From positions 1 to 53,085 of IMG/VR virus record IMGVR_UViG_3300036790_000232: a stretch of 53,085 nt of DNA, one strand, 5' to 3'. Source of the stretch: a virus (taxonomy: Duplodnaviria > Caudoviricetes). The notes under the pieces are model-generated. The model had not been told where the DNA came from, did no database searches, and was given only the letters and a program-made list of their open reading frames with translations. Both the position numbers and the translations under genes were made by a program. The first letter of the stretch is position 1, and each line of letters begins with the position of its first letter. Shown in pieces: positions 2,556 through 50,053 of the stretch.

Positions 2556-3383
2556 GTGACCGAGCACACCGACACCGCCGCCGTCGTCCGCGACCTCGCT
2601 TACACCGCCAGCGACCCGAGCGAGCTGGAGCCCGGCAAGGTCTACGGCTGGCTGACCAACGGCCAGGTCCACAAGATCGACCTCACCGCCGACGAGTACC
2701 GCGAGTACCCGCTGCGCAAGCGCGGCACCGTGACCGTGCGGAACGTCGCCAGCTTCGCCCACTACTACGCCAAGCACTCCAGCGGCTTCTCCGAGGTCTT
2801 CGCCGACCTCGACGCGGGCACGTTCACCGCCGTGCTGGACGCCCACGGCCCCGAGGGCGAGGACGTGGCATGGCAGCAGCACCGCCTCGTCCTCCAGCTC
2901 CAGCAGACGCTCCCGTGGCGCACCTGGCTCGCCAACGACCGGGCCATGATGCCCCAGCAGGCGTTCGCCGAGTTCCTCGAGGACAACGCCCGCGACGTCA
3001 CCGGCAAGCGCGTCACCGCCGCCGACCTGCTTGAGGTCGCCCAGCACTTCCAGGCGCACACCAAGGTCAACTTCACCCAGGGGCAGCGGCTCGCCACCGG
3101 CCAGACGCAGCTCACCTACGTGGAAGAGGTCGACGCCAAGGCAGGCCAGCGCGGCACGGTCGAGATCCCGGCCGAGTTCGACCTGGCCATCCTGCCCTAC
3201 GAGGACTGCGCGCCGAAGGTGATGGCCGCCCGCTTCCGCTACCGGCTGGCCAACGGGGAACTCAAGCTGGGCTATTTCCTTAACGACCCCGCCCGCACCG
3301 CACGGGAGGCGTGCGACGAGATCGCCGCCAAGCTCGCCGAGGCGTGCAGCGTCACCGTCATGCACGGCCAGCCGGCAAGGTAA
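2556..3383 (+). CDS. DUF2303 (YfdQ-like) family protein
   Basis: SFAHYY...FTAVLD.H...W..HR...Q..FAEFLEDN...F.LAI.PY...ARFRYR pattern. Confidence 0.8.
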   Translation: MTEHTDTAAVVRDLAYTASDPSELEPGKVYGWLTNGQVHKIDLTADEYREYPLRKRGTVTVRNVASFAHYYAKHSSGFSEVFADLDAGTFTAVLDAHGPEGEDVAWQQHRLVLQLQQTLPWRTWLANDRAMMPQQAFAEFLEDNARDVTGKRVTAADLLEVAQHFQAHTKVNFTQGQRLATGQTQLTYVEEVDAKAGQRGTVEIPAEFDLAILPYEDCAPKVMAARFRYRLANGELKLGYFLNDPARTAREACDEIAAKLAEACSVTVMHGQPAR

Positions 3384-10931: not shown

Positions 10932-11267
10932 ATGCCCTGGGAGAAGACGGCCGCCGACCGAAAAGCGGAGAACGCGTTCTATAACGACCCGGTCTATAAA
11001 CGCAACAAGGTCATCGTCCTGCGCCAGGCCGGCGGGCGCTGCAGCGACTGCGGCCACAGGCACCAGCGGCTCCAAGTCGACCACGGCATCCCGCGGGCAC
11101 AGGGCGGCGGCCACGAGCTGGCCAACCTGTCCGCCAAGTGCTCCGGCGACGGATCTTGCAAGTGCCACGAGAAGAAGACCGCGACCGAGGGCCGTGGCTA
11201 CCGCAACCCGGCCAGCCGCACCACTACAGCGCGTGACCCGAAGCCGAAGCCACGGACGAGATGGTGA
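10932..11267 (+). CDS. HNH endonuclease (packaging-associated type)
   Basis: CSDC...VDH.IP..QGG.H..ANL...C...CH..KT; sits next to the packaging region. Confidence 0.9.
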   Translation: MPWEKTAADRKAENAFYNDPVYKRNKVIVLRQAGGRCSDCGHRHQRLQVDHGIPRAQGGGHELANLSAKCSGDGSCKCHEKKTATEGRGYRNPASRTTTARDPKPKPRTRW

Positions 11268-11620
11268 CACGGTGAGCGACATGATCAAACATCGACGGAC
11301 CTCACTGCATAACTATACATACACGCACGTCACATACACGGAGGTGGATGTGGCGCGTCGTAACGCGGAAGTCCAGCGGGCTCCGGCGACAGAGCCCAGC
11401 CTGCCCCTAGATCCCCCTCCCCACCCCTAAAACTTCGCCAAAATGTCACTTTCCGTCACCATAGACAGTAATCAATGCATGACTATGCAGTGACATCCGT
11501 CAATGTCGACGATCGTGAATGTTGTATCGCGTGTTTGGATTGTCCGTCGTGAATGTGGACGTTAAGCGACTGAAATCGAGGGGAGGCCGTCCTTGCCGGG
11601 ACGGAATAGCTTCAATACGG

Positions 11621-11648
11621 CACGGCATATATACCGTGATGATATGGT
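11621..11648 (+). promoter_or_regulatory. Putative operator palindrome and -10 box of the RAMP cassette
   Basis: CACGG-CATATATA-CCGTG at 11621-11638; TATGGT (TANNNT) at 11643-11648, 6 nt before the first repeat unit. Confidence 0.45.
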
Positions 11649-11654
11649 GTCTAT

Positions 11655-11738
11655 TGCACGGCTGAGCGTGGCCGAGCATGGCGCGGTTTGGCAGGGCTAG
11701 GTGCGGCCCGGCAGCGCGAGGCAACGACCCCCGAAGGG
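11655..11738 (+). ncRNA. GGY-NN pentamer array 1 (putative guide RNA) with terminal hairpin
   Basis: 14 five-nt units from TGC-AC to GGC-AA, then CGACCCCCGAAGGG. Confidence 0.8.
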
Positions 11739-11745
11739 ATCCACC

Positions 11746-12330
11746 ATGGACTTTCGTGTAACTCTCACAGGCACGAGCGCGCTGATCATGAACAACGCGC
11801 GCATGGCCAACCCGCTCGACCCCGCGACCAAGGCGTACAAGGCGGTCAGCGGGAAGCGGAGCAAGACCGAGCAAGACCTTGAAGGCGTTTTCCGGCTCGG
11901 CCACGCAGGGGCGATGTACCACGACGGCGACGTTGGCCCGTACTTGCCGGCCGACAACATATGGAAATCGCTGCAGGAGGGGGCCAAGAAGCACCGTCTC
12001 GGGCAGAAGGTGACCGAGGGCGTGATCATCCTGACGGACGTCAACCCGATCGCCTACAAGGGGCCGCGTGACATCCCTGGCCTGTGGTCCGACGAGAACT
12101 TCCGGTTCATGTCGATGCGCGTGACCGGCACCGGCTCGCAGCGTAAGCGCGTCCCGTTCTGCCGGCCGGTGTTCCGTGAGTGGCACACCGACTGCACGGG
12201 GACGCTTGACGACTCGATCATTGACCTGGATGAGTTCCGGTTGATCGCCGAGACTGCAGGCTCACGGGTCGGCGTTTGCGACTGGCGCCCTCGCTACGGC
12301 CGGTTCTCGGCGGTCGTTGAGGCGGCCTGA
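11746..12330 (+). CDS. Stand-alone Cas7/RAMP-fold protein (Vipr-like)
   Basis: 194 aa; N-terminal strand FRVTLTGTSALIMN, GPYLPADNIWKSL helix motif, RPVF.EW, Gly-rich C-terminal loop AGSRVGVCDWRPRYGRF. Confidence 0.75.
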   Translation: MDFRVTLTGTSALIMNNARMANPLDPATKAYKAVSGKRSKTEQDLEGVFRLGHAGAMYHDGDVGPYLPADNIWKSLQEGAKKHRLGQKVTEGVIILTDVNPIAYKGPRDIPGLWSDENFRFMSMRVTGTGSQRKRVPFCRPVFREWHTDCTGTLDDSIIDLDEFRLIAETAGSRVGVCDWRPRYGRFSAVVEAA

Positions 12331-12869
12331 TGTCGCCGTTCACCCCGAAGGGTGACCGTGCACGCTGGCGGGCGGTCTACGATCTGCTGCGCGGTTCTGC
12401 CGTGGGGGACGTGATCACGTACGAGCAGATCGGCGAAGCGCTCGACCTGGACCCGGAGGACGACCGCCACCGTATCCAGATGGCGGTACGGCGGGCCGCG
12501 AAAGAGCACGAGGAACAGGACAGGCGCGCGATCGAGGTCGTGCCCAACAGCGGGTACCGCATCGTGGAGGCACCTGAGCACCTGCGGCTGGCGCGCAAGC
12601 AGCAGAAGAAGTCATCGCGGGCGCTGGTGCGCGGGCACTCGAAGGTGACCCACGTGGACCTGTCCGGCATGGACCCGGACACGCGGCACGCCTTCGAGGT
12701 GGTAGCGCGGGCGTTCACGATGCAGATGGAATTCAACAAGCGGTTCGACGTCCGGCAGGAACGTATCGAGAACGCGGTCAGCGAGATGACCGAGCGGACC
12801 GAGCGGACCGAGCAGGAGATAGCCGACCTGAAGGCCAGGCTTGCCCGGCTGGAAGGCGAGCAGACCTAG
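12330..12869 (+). CDS. Winged-helix plus coiled-coil accessory protein
   Basis: GDVITYEQIGEAL...V...GYRIV wHTH pattern; C-terminal heptads; TGATG coupling to the RAMP gene. Confidence 0.75.
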   Translation: MSPFTPKGDRARWRAVYDLLRGSAVGDVITYEQIGEALDLDPEDDRHRIQMAVRRAAKEHEEQDRRAIEVVPNSGYRIVEAPEHLRLARKQQKKSSRALVRGHSKVTHVDLSGMDPDTRHAFEVVARAFTMQMEFNKRFDVRQERIENAVSEMTERTERTEQEIADLKARLARLEGEQT

Positions 12870-12952
12870 CAGGGCACGGCACGGCAGGGCTGGGCTTAGC
12901 CCGGCTTGGCGCGGCAGCGCGTGGCTAGGCAAGGCAACGGCCTCCGTAGAGG
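12868..12952 (+). ncRNA. GGY-NN pentamer array 2 with terminal hairpin
   Basis: 14 units from AGC-AG to GGC-AA, then CGG-CCTC-CGTA-GAGG. Confidence 0.8.
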
Positions 12953-12957
12953 TGGCA

Positions 12958-12997
12958 GGGTGACCGGCAGTCATCCCGGTTCGAGACCGGGGCACCC
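12958..12997 (+). ncRNA. tRNA-like minihelix (acceptor-like stem plus T-arm) between arrays 2 and 3
   Basis: GGGTG...CCCGG-TTCGAGA-CCGGG-G-CACCC. Confidence 0.65.
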
Positions 12998-12998
12998 G

Positions 12999-13083
12999 CG
13001 CAAGGCTGGGCATGGCTGGGCCGGCCCCGGCTGGGCGCGGCCTGGCGCGGCATGGCGTGGCACGGCAACGACCCCCGAAGGGG
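12999..13083 (+). ncRNA. GGY-NN pentamer array 3 with terminal hairpin
   Basis: 14 units from CGC-AA to GGC-AA, then CGACCCCCGAAGGGG. Confidence 0.8.
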
Positions 13084-13088
13084 AGAGC

Positions 13089-13331
13089 ATGACAACGACC
13101 ACCGTCACCACCGTCCGCTGTGACCAGTGCGGCAAGACCGTGCCGAAGGAACAGCGTGACGGGTGGCTGTTCCTGAACGTCATGAGCAAGGAAGCCCACA
13201 GGAGCAGGGTCGACTTGACCATCGCTGGACTTCGCTGGCCGGCCGCGCTCTCGTCTGACCTGTGCTCATGGGAGTGCGTCCGCGACTACGCGGCCCTCCA
13301 GTTGCTTGACCCGACACCTGAGCAGCCGTAA
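13089..13331 (+). CDS. Small Cys-containing (zinc-finger-like) protein
   Basis: CDQC...CSWEC; GAAGGGGAG RBS inside the array 3 hairpin. Confidence 0.65.
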   Translation: MTTTTVTTVRCDQCGKTVPKEQRDGWLFLNVMSKEAHRSRVDLTIAGLRWPAALSSDLCSWECVRDYAALQLLDPTPEQP

Positions 13332-14954
13332 CGCGACGATCATCCGTATCCGTGCCCGCTTCACCGCGGGGATCGTGAGCGCGAGCTTGACCGCGCCCGC
13401 CGCTGCGTAGGCGGCGTCCACGTGGCCCTCGTGCTTGCGGGTGAACCGCCAGCCGTCGCCGCTGCTGAGCTTGCTGGCGGCGCGGACGTGAGCGTCTAGC
13501 AGCGGGTCCGCGGGGTGCACGACGCGCAGCGCGCGGGCCAGGTCGGCCAGTTCCTGGCATGCCTCGGTGACCCTGGCGCCCGTGATGGCGCCGTCCTCGG
13601 GCACGTCGCCGGGCTCCCGCTTGCCGCCAGGCCGCCTGTTGTACCGCAGGGCGAGCGGCCGCAGGGTGGTGGCGATGCCCGCGGCGGGCCCGGACGGGTA
13701 CCAGCCGAACGCCGCGGGCTTGATCTCGGCGAGCAGCGCGGGCAGTTCGGCGCGCACGGCGTCGGTGCTGTCCCATGCGGCGGCGATCTCGACGCGCGGC
13801 CTGCCGTCGGCGAGGGTGGCGGAGACGGCGAGGGTGGCGTGCTTCCCGTCCGGCGCGACGTCGAGGCACGCGGCGATGCGCCCGCGGTGGGCGTCCATGG
13901 TGCCGGCGGGGTCGGCGCAGTTGTCCCATGAGGCGTGGTCGATGGCGGCGTCGAGGTTGGCGACACGCTGGCAGAGCACTTCCGTCCTGAATATCTCGGG
14001 CGGGTCCTCGCCGAGCGATGACCGGACCGCGGCTTCGCCGATGCCGTCGGCGTAGCCGAGGGCGGGGTTGGCCTGCGCCCAGGCTTCCTCGTCGTCCAGC
14101 TCGCAGCCGTCGGGGGCGCTGTACTCGATGAGGCAGAGCGCGGGGTTGGTGCCGGCCCGCCCGGCGGCCTGGAGCTGGTTGAGGACGACAGAGGTGTCGT
14201 CGCCGGCGTTGGACATCGCCCAGAGCTGGCCGTTGCGGCGGGCCATGGTGGTCTTGGACAGTGACCCCCAGGCCTTCCAGTCCTTCTGGGTGCGCAGCTC
14301 GTCGATGTTGACTTCGTCGTTGCTGCCGCCGCGGCCGGCCTTGTCGTTGGTGGCCTTGATGGCGTAGCACCCGGTTCCTGCCCAGAACATCTCGTCGCCG
14401 TTGACGTTCCGGACGTCAATCCACTCTTCTTGCAGGTCGGGGCAGGCGTGGATGGTTTCCTGGCACATCTGCCACTGCTTGCGGGCGAGGGAGAGATCCT
14501 GGGCGGCGCCGACGATGTCACGGGCGCCGTCCATGTACATGCGCCAGAGGGTGACGATCCGCTTGAGGTGGCTCTTGCCGTTCTGGCGGGCGACGATGAT
14601 CAGGACGGTGCGGAAGCGGTAGCTGCCGTCGGGGTTGAGCTCGAGCGCGTGGATGACGGCCCATCGCTGCCAGGGCAGGAGGGGCTGGCCGATCATCTCG
14701 GCGAAGTCGATGACCTCGTAGCCGCGGGTGGTCTTGCGGTTGAGCGGCCGCAGCGGCCTGGTCCACAGGCGCGGCTCGGTGCGCCCTAGGAGCTTGCGGC
14801 CGGGCCCGCGCCTGGCGGGGTCCTGCGGGCTGCCGGGCTTGTGGTCGGGGCAGCGCTTGCGGCCGGGGGCGGCGAGCTTGCGGCAGCCGGCGAAGCTGCA
14901 GCGCTTACGCGCTGCGCGCGTCGCGGAGCTTCGCGAGTCCGTTTGGCTTGGCAT
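13266..14954 (-). CDS. terL: Terminase large subunit
   Basis: LLPWQRW, Walker A VARQNGKS, Walker B VNIDELR, SNAG coupling motif, QANPALG, C-terminal VDAAYA nuclease motif. Confidence 0.95.
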   Translation of the reverse strand: MPSQTDSRSSATRAARKRCSFAGCRKLAAPGRKRCPDHKPGSPQDPARRGPGRKLLGRTEPRLWTRPLRPLNRKTTRGYEVIDFAEMIGQPLLPWQRWAVIHALELNPDGSYRFRTVLIIVARQNGKSHLKRIVTLWRMYMDGARDIVGAAQDLSLARKQWQMCQETIHACPDLQEEWIDVRNVNGDEMFWAGTGCYAIKATNDKAGRGGSNDEVNIDELRTQKDWKAWGSLSKTTMARRNGQLWAMSNAGDDTSVVLNQLQAAGRAGTNPALCLIEYSAPDGCELDDEEAWAQANPALGYADGIGEAAVRSSLGEDPPEIFRTEVLCQRVANLDAAIDHASWDNCADPAGTMDAHRGRIAACLDVAPDGKHATLAVSATLADGRPRVEIAAAWDSTDAVRAELPALLAEIKPAAFGWYPSGPAAGIATTLRPLALRYNRRPGGKREPGDVPEDGAITGARVTEACQELADLARALRVVHPADPLLDAHVRAASKLSSGDGWRFTRKHEGHVDAAYAAAGAVKLALTIPAVKRARIRMIVALRLLRCRVKQLEGRVVADALP

Positions 14955-15621: not shown

Positions 15622-15843
15622 GTGGACTTGCCAGAGATCACCGAGGTCAAGCGGCTGACGCTCCGCCCTGGCGACTCGGTCATCGTGCGCCTTGAGTACG
15701 ACCCGTCGATGGACGAGGTCGACGGGATCCAGGCGGGCGTACTGAGTGCCCTGGGCCGGCTGGACTACGTGCCGCCGGTGCTGGTGCTCGGTCCCCGCAT
15801 GGACATCGAGGTCATCGGGCCGCCTGACGCGGACACCACCTGA
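15622..15843 (+). CDS. Hypothetical protein
   Basis: GTG start; L.L.PGD.VIVR pattern; TGATG overlap with portal. Confidence 0.6.
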   Translation: MDLPEITEVKRLTLRPGDSVIVRLEYDPSMDEVDGIQAGVLSALGRLDYVPPVLVLGPRMDIEVIGPPDADTT

Positions 15844-46716: not shown

Positions 46717-46934
46717 GTGCACATGCAGTGCACATGAGTAATACCTAATAGTACCGGATAAGAAACAATAAGAATTAATAGTTTCGCAGACCAGATAAGG
46801 CGAATCGAAAACGCGGGCCTCTGGCCTGCACCGGCTCAATCCCGCTCCCTATTACCGGGTCAAGTGCTGCTACACCACCCTGGCCAGCGGTGACGTCCGG
46901 TTACCCGCTTCCGGTTGCACAGACCGTGCACATG
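46717..46934. other. Putative attP region with arm-type repeats
   Basis: GTGCACATG at 46717, 46728, 46926 and a variant at 46915, flanking an AT-rich stretch at the integrase 3' end. Confidence 0.65.
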
Positions 46935-48231
46935 CACCGAGGAAAGCGGCCGACGCCGCGCGGCCCGCGTCCTCGCCGTCGTGGTCGTCCGGCATCAGGT
47001 GAAGGTAGGCCTGCGTCACCATCTCGACCGTGTCGCCCAGCCACGCCGCGGCCCGCACGACGTCGATGCCCCCGCGCAGCCACGCCGACGCGGCGGTGTG
47101 CCGCGTCCGGTGGATGCCGTAGCCCCGCGCCAGCGCCCGGCGCCCGCCCAGCACCTGCGGCGCCCGCCAGCGGCTCACCCCGGTACGCCACGCCGCGTCC
47201 ATGACGTTCCTGCCGGCGGCCGTCCCGTCCTCGTGCGACAGCACCAGGCGCACCGTGACCAGCGTGCCGTGGAGCTTCGACCCCGGCTCGTGCCACGGCA
47301 GCGTCACCGCCAGCGGCGGGAACCGCTCCGCGTGCGCGTCGATCCGCTCGACCAGCTCGGGCGGCACGGGCACGTCGTGCGGCTTCTTGTTCTTCACCGG
47401 CCCGAAGCGCAGCTCCCCGCCGATTTCCTTGAGCTGGCGCGTGACGCGGACCTTCGGCTTCTTCCCGCGGACGATGTCGTCGGCACCCAGGCCGGCCATC
47501 TCCATCTCGCGCATGCCGGTGCCCGCGCCCAGGTAGGGGACGAGCCCGAAGCGCTCCGGCATGCACGCGGCGATCCCCGCCACCTCGGCCGGCGCGTATG
47601 GCTGCGCCTCGCCGCCGCCCTTCCCCGGCCGGTCCACCGCCTTCGACTTGACTGGGTCGCGGCCGACGATCCCGTCCTCGGCCGCGGCCTGGAAGACGGC
47701 TGAGACGTCGCCCATCACCAGGCGCCTGGAGCTGTCGGCCAGCGGCATCGCGGCGGCCCACGCGGCGACGATGCTCGGGCGCGCGGCGAGCAGCCCCATC
47801 GGGTACTGGCCGATCGCCGCGCCGCCCTTGGGTGTCTTCCCGCTGCCCGGCTCGCCCTCGTAGACGTGGCAGCGCAGGCGCGCCTCCAGCCCGGCCGCGG
47901 CCGACTCGCCGTGCTTGCGCGACTTGCGCCACTGCTCGGCGTACGCCCGCAGCGTCACCTCCCCTGCGTCGGGGTCGGTGTAGGTGCGGGTGTCGATCTC
48001 CCGCCGGATCTTGACGTCGAACGCCTCGGCGTGGAGCTCGGGGTTCTTGCCCTCCCTGAGGGCGAAGTTCCTTGCCTTCTGCTTCCCGGTGACCGGGTCG
48101 CGCCAGCGGACCTGCCAGCGGTCACCGCGCTGGTGGTCCCTGCCGGGGTAGAGCTTGTTGCGCCCGCGCCCGCAGTGGCACGGCTGGCCGCCGTCCCGCT
48201 GGTCGCGGTGCCACCTGTCGTAGACGGCCAT
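46870..48231 (-). CDS. int: Tyrosine integrase
   Basis: TGMR..E..GL, HRTRHT.AS, A.WLGD, AY.H motifs; RWQVRWRDP arm-binding domain. Confidence 0.95.
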   Translation of the reverse strand: MAVYDRWHRDQRDGGQPCHCGRGRNKLYPGRDHQRGDRWQVRWRDPVTGKQKARNFALREGKNPELHAEAFDVKIRREIDTRTYTDPDAGEVTLRAYAEQWRKSRKHGESAAAGLEARLRCHVYEGEPGSGKTPKGGAAIGQYPMGLLAARPSIVAAWAAAMPLADSSRRLVMGDVSAVFQAAAEDGIVGRDPVKSKAVDRPGKGGGEAQPYAPAEVAGIAACMPERFGLVPYLGAGTGMREMEMAGLGADDIVRGKKPKVRVTRQLKEIGGELRFGPVKNKKPHDVPVPPELVERIDAHAERFPPLAVTLPWHEPGSKLHGTLVTVRLVLSHEDGTAAGRNVMDAAWRTGVSRWRAPQVLGGRRALARGYGIHRTRHTAASAWLRGGIDVVRAAAWLGDTVEMVTQAYLHLMPDDHDGEDAGRAASAAFLGACARSVQPEAGNRTSPLARVV

Positions 48232-49743: not shown

Positions 49744-49946
49744 TGGCCGCCGTCCGGCACCTGACCGAGGCGGAGTTCGCCGAGCGCGAGGGCGTCGACG
49801 AGGAGACCGCCAAGAAGTGGCGGAAGAACGGCACCGGGCCGCGGTACCTCCAGCTCACCAAGAGCGCGACCAAGGGCACCGTCCGCTACCGCGAGGCCGA
49901 CGTCGAGGCGTGGGAGCTAGAGCGCCTCGTCCCCGCCACCGCCTAG
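49743..49946 (+). CDS. Excisionase/AlpA-like HTH protein
   Basis: LTE.EFA...GV...T...WR..G.GP.Y...VRY...DVEAW. Confidence 0.85.
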   Translation: MAAVRHLTEAEFAEREGVDEETAKKWRKNGTGPRYLQLTKSATKGTVRYREADVEAWELERLVPATA

Positions 49947-50053
49947 AACGCGGCAGCCCCCGGTGCACGGGGGCCGCCAGCAGTGGCAGCCGCTAGCTGC
50001 CAGCCCGGCGGGAGAACGCCACGCCGGTCACATCAAGGTAACAGGAGAACGCA

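Follow-up and report, generated by a model that had tools for sequence, protein, structure and literature searches.

A probable VIPR locus with three GGY-NN guide arrays and a tRNA-like minihelix in an uncultured high-GC soil actinophage

Gene content and genomic setting

The analyzed window is a complete virus record of 53,085 bp with 70% GC, and it carries on its plus strand a compact locus in the order vrRNA1, vipr, vap-like gene, vrRNA2, minihelix, and vrRNA3. The vipr gene (11746-12330, plus strand) encodes a minimal RAMP or Cas7-like protein of 194 aa. A phmmer search against PDB aligned residues 5-191 of this product with residues 6-189 of 36pp_D, 'SUSP1 Vipr protein' (E 2.5e-25), and chain D of 36pp was the only solved structure matched. 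The protein belongs to phrog_4652 (E 5.5e-43), and no Pfam family was found for it. Altogether, vipr homologs are present in 130 phage records, those of Felixounavirus, Gordonia and Mycobacterium phages included. The closest relatives in the phage collection are found in Gordonia phage MakoManhole, Mycobacterium phage LittleE and Gordonia phage Trine (50%, 41% and 37% identity, respectively), and identity to the Felixounavirus proteins is about 34%. A search for close Vipr relatives returned one distant locus in genome_contigs, in an Armatimonadota MAG (L004), and none in viral_contigs; at the nucleotide level, megablast found no match to positions 11000-14000 of the window among phages.

In the SUSP1 protein, contacts to the GGY triplet and to the skipped base are made by D177, W178, R179, R138 and K33, and also by H17, E71 and M72, as described in the structural preprint (10.64898/2026.04.26.720927). 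According to the phmmer alignment to 36pp_D, D177-W178-R179, R138 and K33 are kept in the present protein as DWR, R and K, and the positions of H17, E71 and M72 are occupied by N, D and N.

The stop codon of vipr is overlapped by a vap-like accessory gene (12330-12869, plus strand), whose product of 179 aa is predicted to bind DNA and has a coiled-coil C-terminus. This product was assigned to phrog_5926 (E 6e-06) and is similar to MakoManhole gp77, annotated as 'DNA binding protein' (36% identity, 2e-27), and to LittleE gp33 (28% identity, 6e-24), both of which follow vipr in their own phages. The similarity to the gene located after vipr in Shigella phage Z31, a Felixounavirus, is weak (24% identity, E 0.002).

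The whole locus is flanked on one side by a gene for an HNH endonuclease (10932-11267) and on the other by a terminase-large-subunit-like gene (13266-14954, minus strand), the latter lying on the strand opposite to the structural genes, which start near 15843. The closest relative of the phage gene at 18559-20055 was found with 84% identity on a contig of a Trebonia (Streptosporangiales) MAG. The locus is represented in one DNA sequencing run, which is probably its source, and no RNA run is listed for it. Elsewhere in the window there is a weak match to a tyrosine integrase (46873-48231, minus strand; E 3.6e-4), with an odd tRNA-like call that has a 2-nt 'anticodon' in its vicinity (49929-50014, minus strand), and a tRNA-Gly(GCC) gene (22817-22899, minus strand). 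The phage looks temperate, and its integration may take place at a tRNA gene.

Repeat arrays and their tails

The first array, vrRNA1, occupies positions 11655-11724 of the plus strand in the leader of vipr and consists of 14 GGY-NN units: TGCAC GGCTG AGCGT GGCCG AGCAT GGCGC GGTTT GGCAG GGCTA GGTGC GGCCC GGCAG CGCGA GGCAA. The variable dinucleotides of these units form the string AC TG GT CG AT GC TT AG TA GC CC AG GA AA, in exact agreement with the string given in the first-pass annotation of this DNA. Four of the 14 units are degenerate at the G positions, namely unit 1 (TGCAC) and units 3, 5 and 13 (AGC, AGC and CGC). The array continues into a 3' tail (11725-11738, plus strand; CGACCCCCGAAGGG) made of CGA and a CCC(C)-CGAA-GGG hairpin, which lies 8 nt upstream of the vipr ATG (11746) and overlaps the likely ribosome-binding site.

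Two further arrays of 14 units each follow the genes on the same strand. The vrRNA2 tract (12868-12937) has the dinucleotides AG AC AC AG TG TT CC TT GC AG GT TA AA AA and ends in a CCTC-CGTA-GAGG tail hairpin (12938-12957). The vrRNA3 tract (12999-13068) has the dinucleotides AA TG AT TG CG CC TG GC CT GC AT GT AC AA, and its tail hairpin (13069-13083; CGA followed by CCCC-CGAA-GGGG) stands directly 5' of an ATG at 13089. The GGY triplet is fully intact in 10/14, 11/14 and 12/14 units of the three arrays, and the NN letters differ from array to array. All three arrays terminate in GGCAA-CG and a 4-5-bp hairpin with a YGNA tetraloop, the tail of the third array being near-identical to that of vrRNA1 and the tail of the second being related.

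When the window was scanned with a GGY-register caller, the three plus-strand arrays obtained scores of 8.5, 10 and 11.5, and nothing else comparable was found by the register-aware caller on either strand. In 100 first-order Markov simulations of the window, the best score per simulation averaged 3.8 and never exceeded 5; with scores of 8.5-11.5 against a simulated maximum of 5, the arrays are thus real and far from chance. The folding energies of arrays with their tails are no better than those of shuffled sequences, and we therefore make no claim based on stability.

Two other observations concern the flanks of the arrays. A near-perfect 18-bp palindrome (11621-11638; CACGGCATATATACCGTG) precedes the first unit of vrRNA1 by about 17 nt, within a stretch that is poor in ORFs and lower in GC (about 11270-11650). 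A transcript of vrRNA1 and vipr could have its operator or promoter element here; a sigma-70 consensus scan of this region called no plus-strand promoter. At the other end, 5 nt past the vrRNA3 tail hairpin, starts an ORF of 80 aa (13089-13331) with the CxxC...CxxC look of a zinc ribbon and only weak Pfam hints. The corresponding position in MakoManhole is taken by a gene of unrelated length.

A tRNA-like minihelix between the arrays

The 41 nt that separate vrRNA2 from vrRNA3 (12958-12998, plus strand) can be folded into a tRNA-like minihelix, in which an acceptor-like stem of 5 bp is accompanied by a T arm; the loop of this arm is GGTTCGAGACC. Eleven further copies of this element flank arrays in other phages and in one MAG: three in MakoManhole (1651-1692, 2984-3025 and 3102-3143 of L001), four in LittleE (near 2264, 2399, 3720 and 3863 of L002), three in Trine (near 3107, 3228 and 3337 of L003) and one in the Armatimonadota MAG (near 224 of L004). 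They have in common the acceptor-like stem and the T arm with a GGTTCGAnTCC loop. The alignment with these 11 copies from four other VIPR loci contains compensatory changes in nine of the ten predicted pairs, and the fold is supported because of this covariation.

An identity of the minihelix as a tRNA was rejected, since only the acceptor-like stem and the T arm are present and the full cloverleaf with its D and anticodon arms is not. ARAGORN called no tRNA at 12958-12998, and an Rfam scan at E up to 10 assigned no family to the same interval. The minihelix would probably recruit RNase P or RNase Z to split the guides, or else cap the filament. The word "tRNA" is absent from the main texts of all three VIPR preprints.

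In LittleE and Trine, the genes gp35 (2054-2443 of L002) and gp40 (3091-3894 of L003), both annotated as 'hypothetical protein', overlap GGC-NN arrays and minihelices. It is probable that both annotations are spurious ORF calls in vrRNA regions that do not code for protein.

Assignment to the VIPR systems

The VIPR preprints of 2026 describe Vipr as a minimal RAMP protein that is encoded mostly by phages, and vrRNA as a series of 9-16 YNNGG repeats with an invariable tail (10.64898/2026.04.26.720920). The sequence hallmarks found at the present locus include a Vipr homolog, the residues that contact GGY and the skipped base, the repeat tracts, the structured 3' tails and an adjacent vap gene; the 14 units per array lie inside the published range. 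The same combination of vipr and GGY-NN arrays was observed in MakoManhole, LittleE, Trine, Z31 and the Armatimonadota MAG, and both genes of the pair recur together with arrays in Gordonia and Mycobacterium phages and in that MAG. Because of the Vipr homology, the vap-like gene, the three arrays of the same build and the conserved hairpin tails, we are highly confident that the phage encodes a VIPR (Viral Interference Programmable Repeat) system and that the first array is its vrRNA1.

Decoding of the guides

The first-pass annotation had proposed a guide RNA that reads its target with one base skipped per unit, so that wobble positions are ignored and synonymous escape is resisted. Its one-base skip had been introduced as an assumption and turns out to be the published VIPR decoding rule; once the array is taken as a VIPR guide, the skip follows from that rule and is no longer a free choice. 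The wider idea also matches the VIPR mechanism as published, in which the skipped bases fall mostly at wobble positions (10.64898/2026.04.26.720920; 10.64898/2026.10.15.759431). Systems of this kind, together with the rule by which they are decoded, were already published in 2026, and the proposed skip is thus right and not new. The experiments on the 1-nt skip presented in the preprint concern only phages of E. coli and Pseudomonas and their type II systems (10.64898/2026.04.26.720920). For the actinophage branch, with its 34% identity to the Felixounavirus proteins, the rule is extrapolated by analogy.

With one N per unit, the reverse complement of vrRNA1 units 1-13 is TCNCTNGGNGCNTANCTNAANGCNATNCGNACNCANGT. 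Its translation reproduced the earlier decoding as S-L-G-A-(Y/*)-L-(K/N)-A-(I/M)-R-T-(H/Q)-V. The choice of strand and frame was evaluated with a codon-position model built from position-specific dinucleotide frequencies in 34 genes of this phage. For all three guides, the NN letters resemble codon positions 1-2 much more than either alternative register: on each strand, placing the skip at the wobble position gains at least 6 bits over the others, the one exception being the own sense strand of vrRNA2 (2 bits). The reverse complement in turn scores higher than the guide's own sense by 4.1 bits for vrRNA1, 7.1 bits for vrRNA2 and 1.4 bits for vrRNA3. The model thus supports the strand and frame that had been chosen for the first array. 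The peptide S-L-G-A-Y-L-(K/N)-A-(I/M)-R-T-(H/Q)-V holds provided that the guide is directed at coding sequence in a genome of similarly high GC content.

The codon-phase signal also bears on an alternative in which the array is a mere protein-docking leader that regulates vipr in cis and the NN letters are meaningless spacers. Such a leader would have its analog in the sites of the TRAP ring, which likewise consist of triplets and spacers. Its position in the 5' leader of vipr, the overlap of the tail hairpin with the ribosome-binding site and the target searches for vrRNA1, which came back empty (see below), are all compatible with this explanation. However, the second and third arrays share this build although their place is 3' of the genes, the codon-phase signal is present in the NN letters of each guide, and published experiments found that the NN letters dictate the DNA targets in homologous systems (10.64898/2026.04.26.720920). 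We consider a cis-acting leader very improbable. The related candidate of an RNA that binds a protein in the manner of TRAP, with the NN letters as spacers, was rejected given the VIPR preprints and the match to PDB 36pp.

Search for targets of vrRNA1

With the arrays regarded as VIPR guides, we searched for sequences that they could pair with. Natural targets in the VIPR preprints are satellites and rival prophages, often at regulators of the lysis-lysogeny decision, and a cut-off of 80% NN match is used there to define them. Self-targets are absent from the systems presented in one of these preprints (10.64898/2026.04.26.720920). In the present phage, the earlier statement that the decoded string of the first array does not match the phage's own repressor or Cro was borne out for its genome as a whole: the best match with a 1-nt skip in the 53,085 bp is 17/28, and shuffled unit orders gave a mean of 17.5 and a maximum of 20 of 28. 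A scan of the phage itself and the loci L001-L009 at gap sizes 0-3 against 100 shuffled unit orders produced nothing above this type of null, with the exception of the arrays matching themselves at gap 3.

Searches of larger collections for near full-length targets were negative. Exact matches to vrRNA1 units 1-13 numbered zero in genome_contigs and zero in viral_contigs, and there were none to units 2-12 in metagenome_contigs. When up to 3 mismatches in the 26 positions of units 1-13 were allowed, matches were found in 0/401 genomes of the order and 0/121 genomes of the family of the Trebonia MAG, and a further small scan of vrRNA1 at the same tolerance gave 0/3 genomes. The second and third guides were searched less widely than vrRNA1, and the mismatch scans covered vrRNA1 and vrRNA2. 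For instance, units 2-13 of vrRNA2 and of vrRNA3 have no exact match in viral_contigs (0 and 0), and vrRNA2 with up to 3 mismatches was found in 0/44 and 0/121 genomes. A nine-unit window of vrRNA2 matched four orthologous loci in viral_contigs, with scores of 19-20/28.

The first-pass annotation had further suggested, from an XRE-repressor-like peptide, that vrRNA1 may target the 5' end of a regulator gene in a competing phage or in the host. In this reading the target would be a gene for an HTH protein of the XRE family, either repressor or Cro, carried by a rival phage or prophage. The favored decoding does yield the motif L-G-.-.-L-K-.-.-R, a pattern that would suit the beginning of HTH_3-type proteins. 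This proposal came with the expectation that matches would be enriched at gap size 1 and would lie in frame within HTH genes. We compared gap sizes in the 44 genomes available for the genus of the Trebonia MAG, allowing up to 2 mismatches to units 4-12 and taking the reversed guide as control. The numbers of matches for the real and the reversed guide were 2 and 2 at gap 0, 9 and 8 at gap 1, 5 and 2 at gap 2, and 3 and 6 at gap 3. Gap 1 tops the counts of both the guide and the control, as the three-base periodicity of coding DNA predicts, and the expected enrichment is therefore absent. Over the full guide the nine gap-1 matches score 17-21/28, and none of the nine lies in an HTH gene, as judged from the translated context.

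Exact matches to nine consecutive units were also examined. Units 1-9 of vrRNA1 have one exact match in viral_contigs and 20 in genome_contigs, units 5-13 have none and eight, respectively, and units 3-11 have none in viral_contigs and seven in metagenomes. The seven metagenomic matches reach 20-22/28 in unrelated contexts. The single viral match falls in an integrase gene on a contig of 52% GC; its skipped bases are at codon position 1, and it scores 22/28 over the full guide. By simple arithmetic, a pattern of 18 bases should match about 17 times by chance when both strands of 596 Gb are searched, and the numbers of independent loci observed in genome_contigs were 3 for units 1-9 and 8 for units 5-13. 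The genes that contain nine-unit matches are diverse and include those for Mfd, an SLT/M23 hydrolase, a histidine kinase, TPR, MurJ, NAD synthase and AMP-binding proteins, as well as Exo_endo_phos, ABC1/aminotransferase, MauJ/SEC-C and integrase proteins. An HTH domain was detected by Pfam in 0/13 of the ORFs that hold vrRNA1 matches, and the remainder, judged from translations, offered no HTH context. Thus none of the partial matches is in frame within an HTH gene.

The decoded helix itself is found nearly intact in unrelated proteins, for example as "EYLKAMRTQV" in Mfd, "LGRYLKAIRTQV" in the SLT/M23 hydrolase and "SLGAYLKAM" in the TPR protein. Its likeness to the first helix of XRE proteins (LG..L+..R) is therefore generic and not diagnostic, as a 13-residue amphipathic helix is not specific for one family. 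Taken with the absence of any excess over the reversed control (9 versus 8), the 17-21/28 scores of the nine near-matches in 44 genomes and the location of all exact nine-unit matches (20 and 8 in genome_contigs, 7 in metagenomes and 1 viral) in non-HTH genes, this leaves the proposed XRE target unsupported. We regard an XRE-family regulator as an unlikely target and the assignment as one guess among several.

One group of partial matches raises a different possibility, that vrRNA1 is directed through its first nine units only against the host gene mfd, which encodes the transcription-repair coupling factor. Units 1-9 match mfd exactly, in antisense orientation and with the skip at the wobble position, in 18 of the 20 genome_contigs matches. 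They belong to one orthologous gene in MAGs of Streptosporangiaceae (8), Streptosporangiales (1) and uncultured Actinomycetota (9), and the copy in L011, with TRCF, CarD_TRCF_RID, UvrB_inter and DEAD domains, is a full Mfd/TRCF. The contig with the closest relative of the phage comes from a Trebonia (Streptosporangiales) MAG, and thus from the same order, which makes the match suggestive. However, the match amounts to 21/28 (75%) in every copy and falls below the 80% cut-off of the preprints; the 18 matches represent one evolutionary event, and the chance expectation of about 17 exceeds the 3 and 8 independent loci. Moreover, at up to 1 mismatch the site is absent from 44/44 genomes of the genus in which the closest phage relative occurs, and no relative of the phage gene 18559-20055 was found in the 10 of the 18 MAGs that were searched for it. 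The match is probably due to chance, given that it is a single event below 80% that is absent from the 44 genomes and unaccompanied by a phage relative in the 10 MAGs. We hold mfd targeting to be highly unlikely. If it were true, VIPR would be turned not on a rival element but on a housekeeping function of the host, the removal of stalled RNA polymerase, which it would silence; the phage's own transcriptional roadblocks could be stabilized, and about 9 of 14 matched units would suffice for VIPR.

The best full-length score for vrRNA1, 23/28, was obtained in a gene for an SLT and M23 cell-wall hydrolase on a contig of Citricoccus sp. (L029, 1742-2809). We take this site as a chance match, as it is within reach of a chance nine-unit match. 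Beyond it, no natural vrRNA1 target with at least 80% NN match at a 1-nt skip was found in the collections scanned. The hydrolase gene adjoins a gene for a ParA-like ATPase in a layout typical of actinobacterial conjugative elements. A hydrolase of the SLT/M23 type in a mobile element of Streptosporangiales would be a candidate target class. The rival elements of an uncultured soil actinophage are most likely missing from the collections covered by the exact and low-mismatch scans.

Proposed mode of action

For the probable VIPR system of this phage, the steps of binding, pairing and blocking follow the VIPR preprints, and the target and the role of the minihelix are proposals of the present analysis. 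Each repeat would be bound by one Vipr protomer that sequesters the GGY triplet, and the NN dinucleotides would be presented for pairing with double-stranded DNA, with every third base skipped. The bound filament would then block transcription of a rival mobile element. The target of vrRNA1 would most likely be a protein-coding stretch of a high-GC element that corresponds to the reverse complement of the guide, with the skip at the wobble position and a peptide like S-L-G-A-Y-L-K/N-A-I/M-R-T-H/Q-V. The minihelix 3' of vrRNA2 would probably recruit tRNA-processing enzymes, by which the arrays would be cut apart.

Comparison with known systems

One of the closest known systems is the type II VIPR of Escherichia phage SUSP1, which comprises Vipr, vap1 and vrRNAs (10.64898/2026.04.26.720920; 10.64898/2026.04.26.720927; PDB 36pp). 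Both systems are phage-borne and have a homologous Vipr that carries DWR in its G-loop, an operon of two genes in which the accessory gene is weakly similar, GGY-NN arrays of 9-16 units with one upstream and others downstream of the genes, and no self-target. In contrast to the GGT units and the pseudoknot tail of SUSP1, the present arrays have GGC units and a simple tetraloop hairpin as tail, with a tRNA-like minihelix between arrays, in a phage of a high-GC actinobacterial host (probably Streptosporangiales). The guides of SUSP1 are described as hitting a satellite, whereas our searches with vrRNA1 found no target.

Further VIPR loci close to the present one are those of the Gordonia and Mycobacterium phages MakoManhole, LittleE and Trine. 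MakoManhole and LittleE share the vap family with the present locus, and in all three phages the GGC-NN arrays are punctuated by the same tRNA-like minihelix. However, these loci have three to four minihelices each, compared to one in our phage, and they differ from it in their unrelated NN strings and in their hosts.

Among the other known systems, the Cas7 backbone of Class 1 CRISPR shares with VIPR the RAMP fold, the binding of one protomer per guide repeat and a thumb that interrupts pairing periodically, as noted in the VIPR preprints. The guide period of VIPR is 5 nt with three bases hidden and two pairing, whereas that of Class 1 Cas7 is 6 nt with five pairing. Unlike Class 1 CRISPR loci, the window holds no CRISPR repeats, no Cas1/Cas2 and no adaptation module, and the guide is hard-wired as a tandem repeat. 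VIPR arrays interspersed with hammerhead ribozymes have also been described, in which the guides are likewise split by a structured RNA able to define ends (10.64898/2026.04.26.720920). The hammerhead arrays cleave themselves, whereas the separator of our arrays is an acceptor/T-arm minihelix and would need host RNase P or RNase Z.

Implications for phage biology and annotation

An uncultured high-GC soil actinophage thus carries what is very probably a complete VIPR locus, with a guide, Vipr, Vap and two further guides. Related loci in the well-studied phages of Gordonia and Mycobacterium carry only hypothetical-protein annotation. The punctuation of the arrays by minihelices, which adds a route that the main texts of the preprints do not contain, suggests that vrRNAs are matured via the tRNA-processing enzymes of the host.
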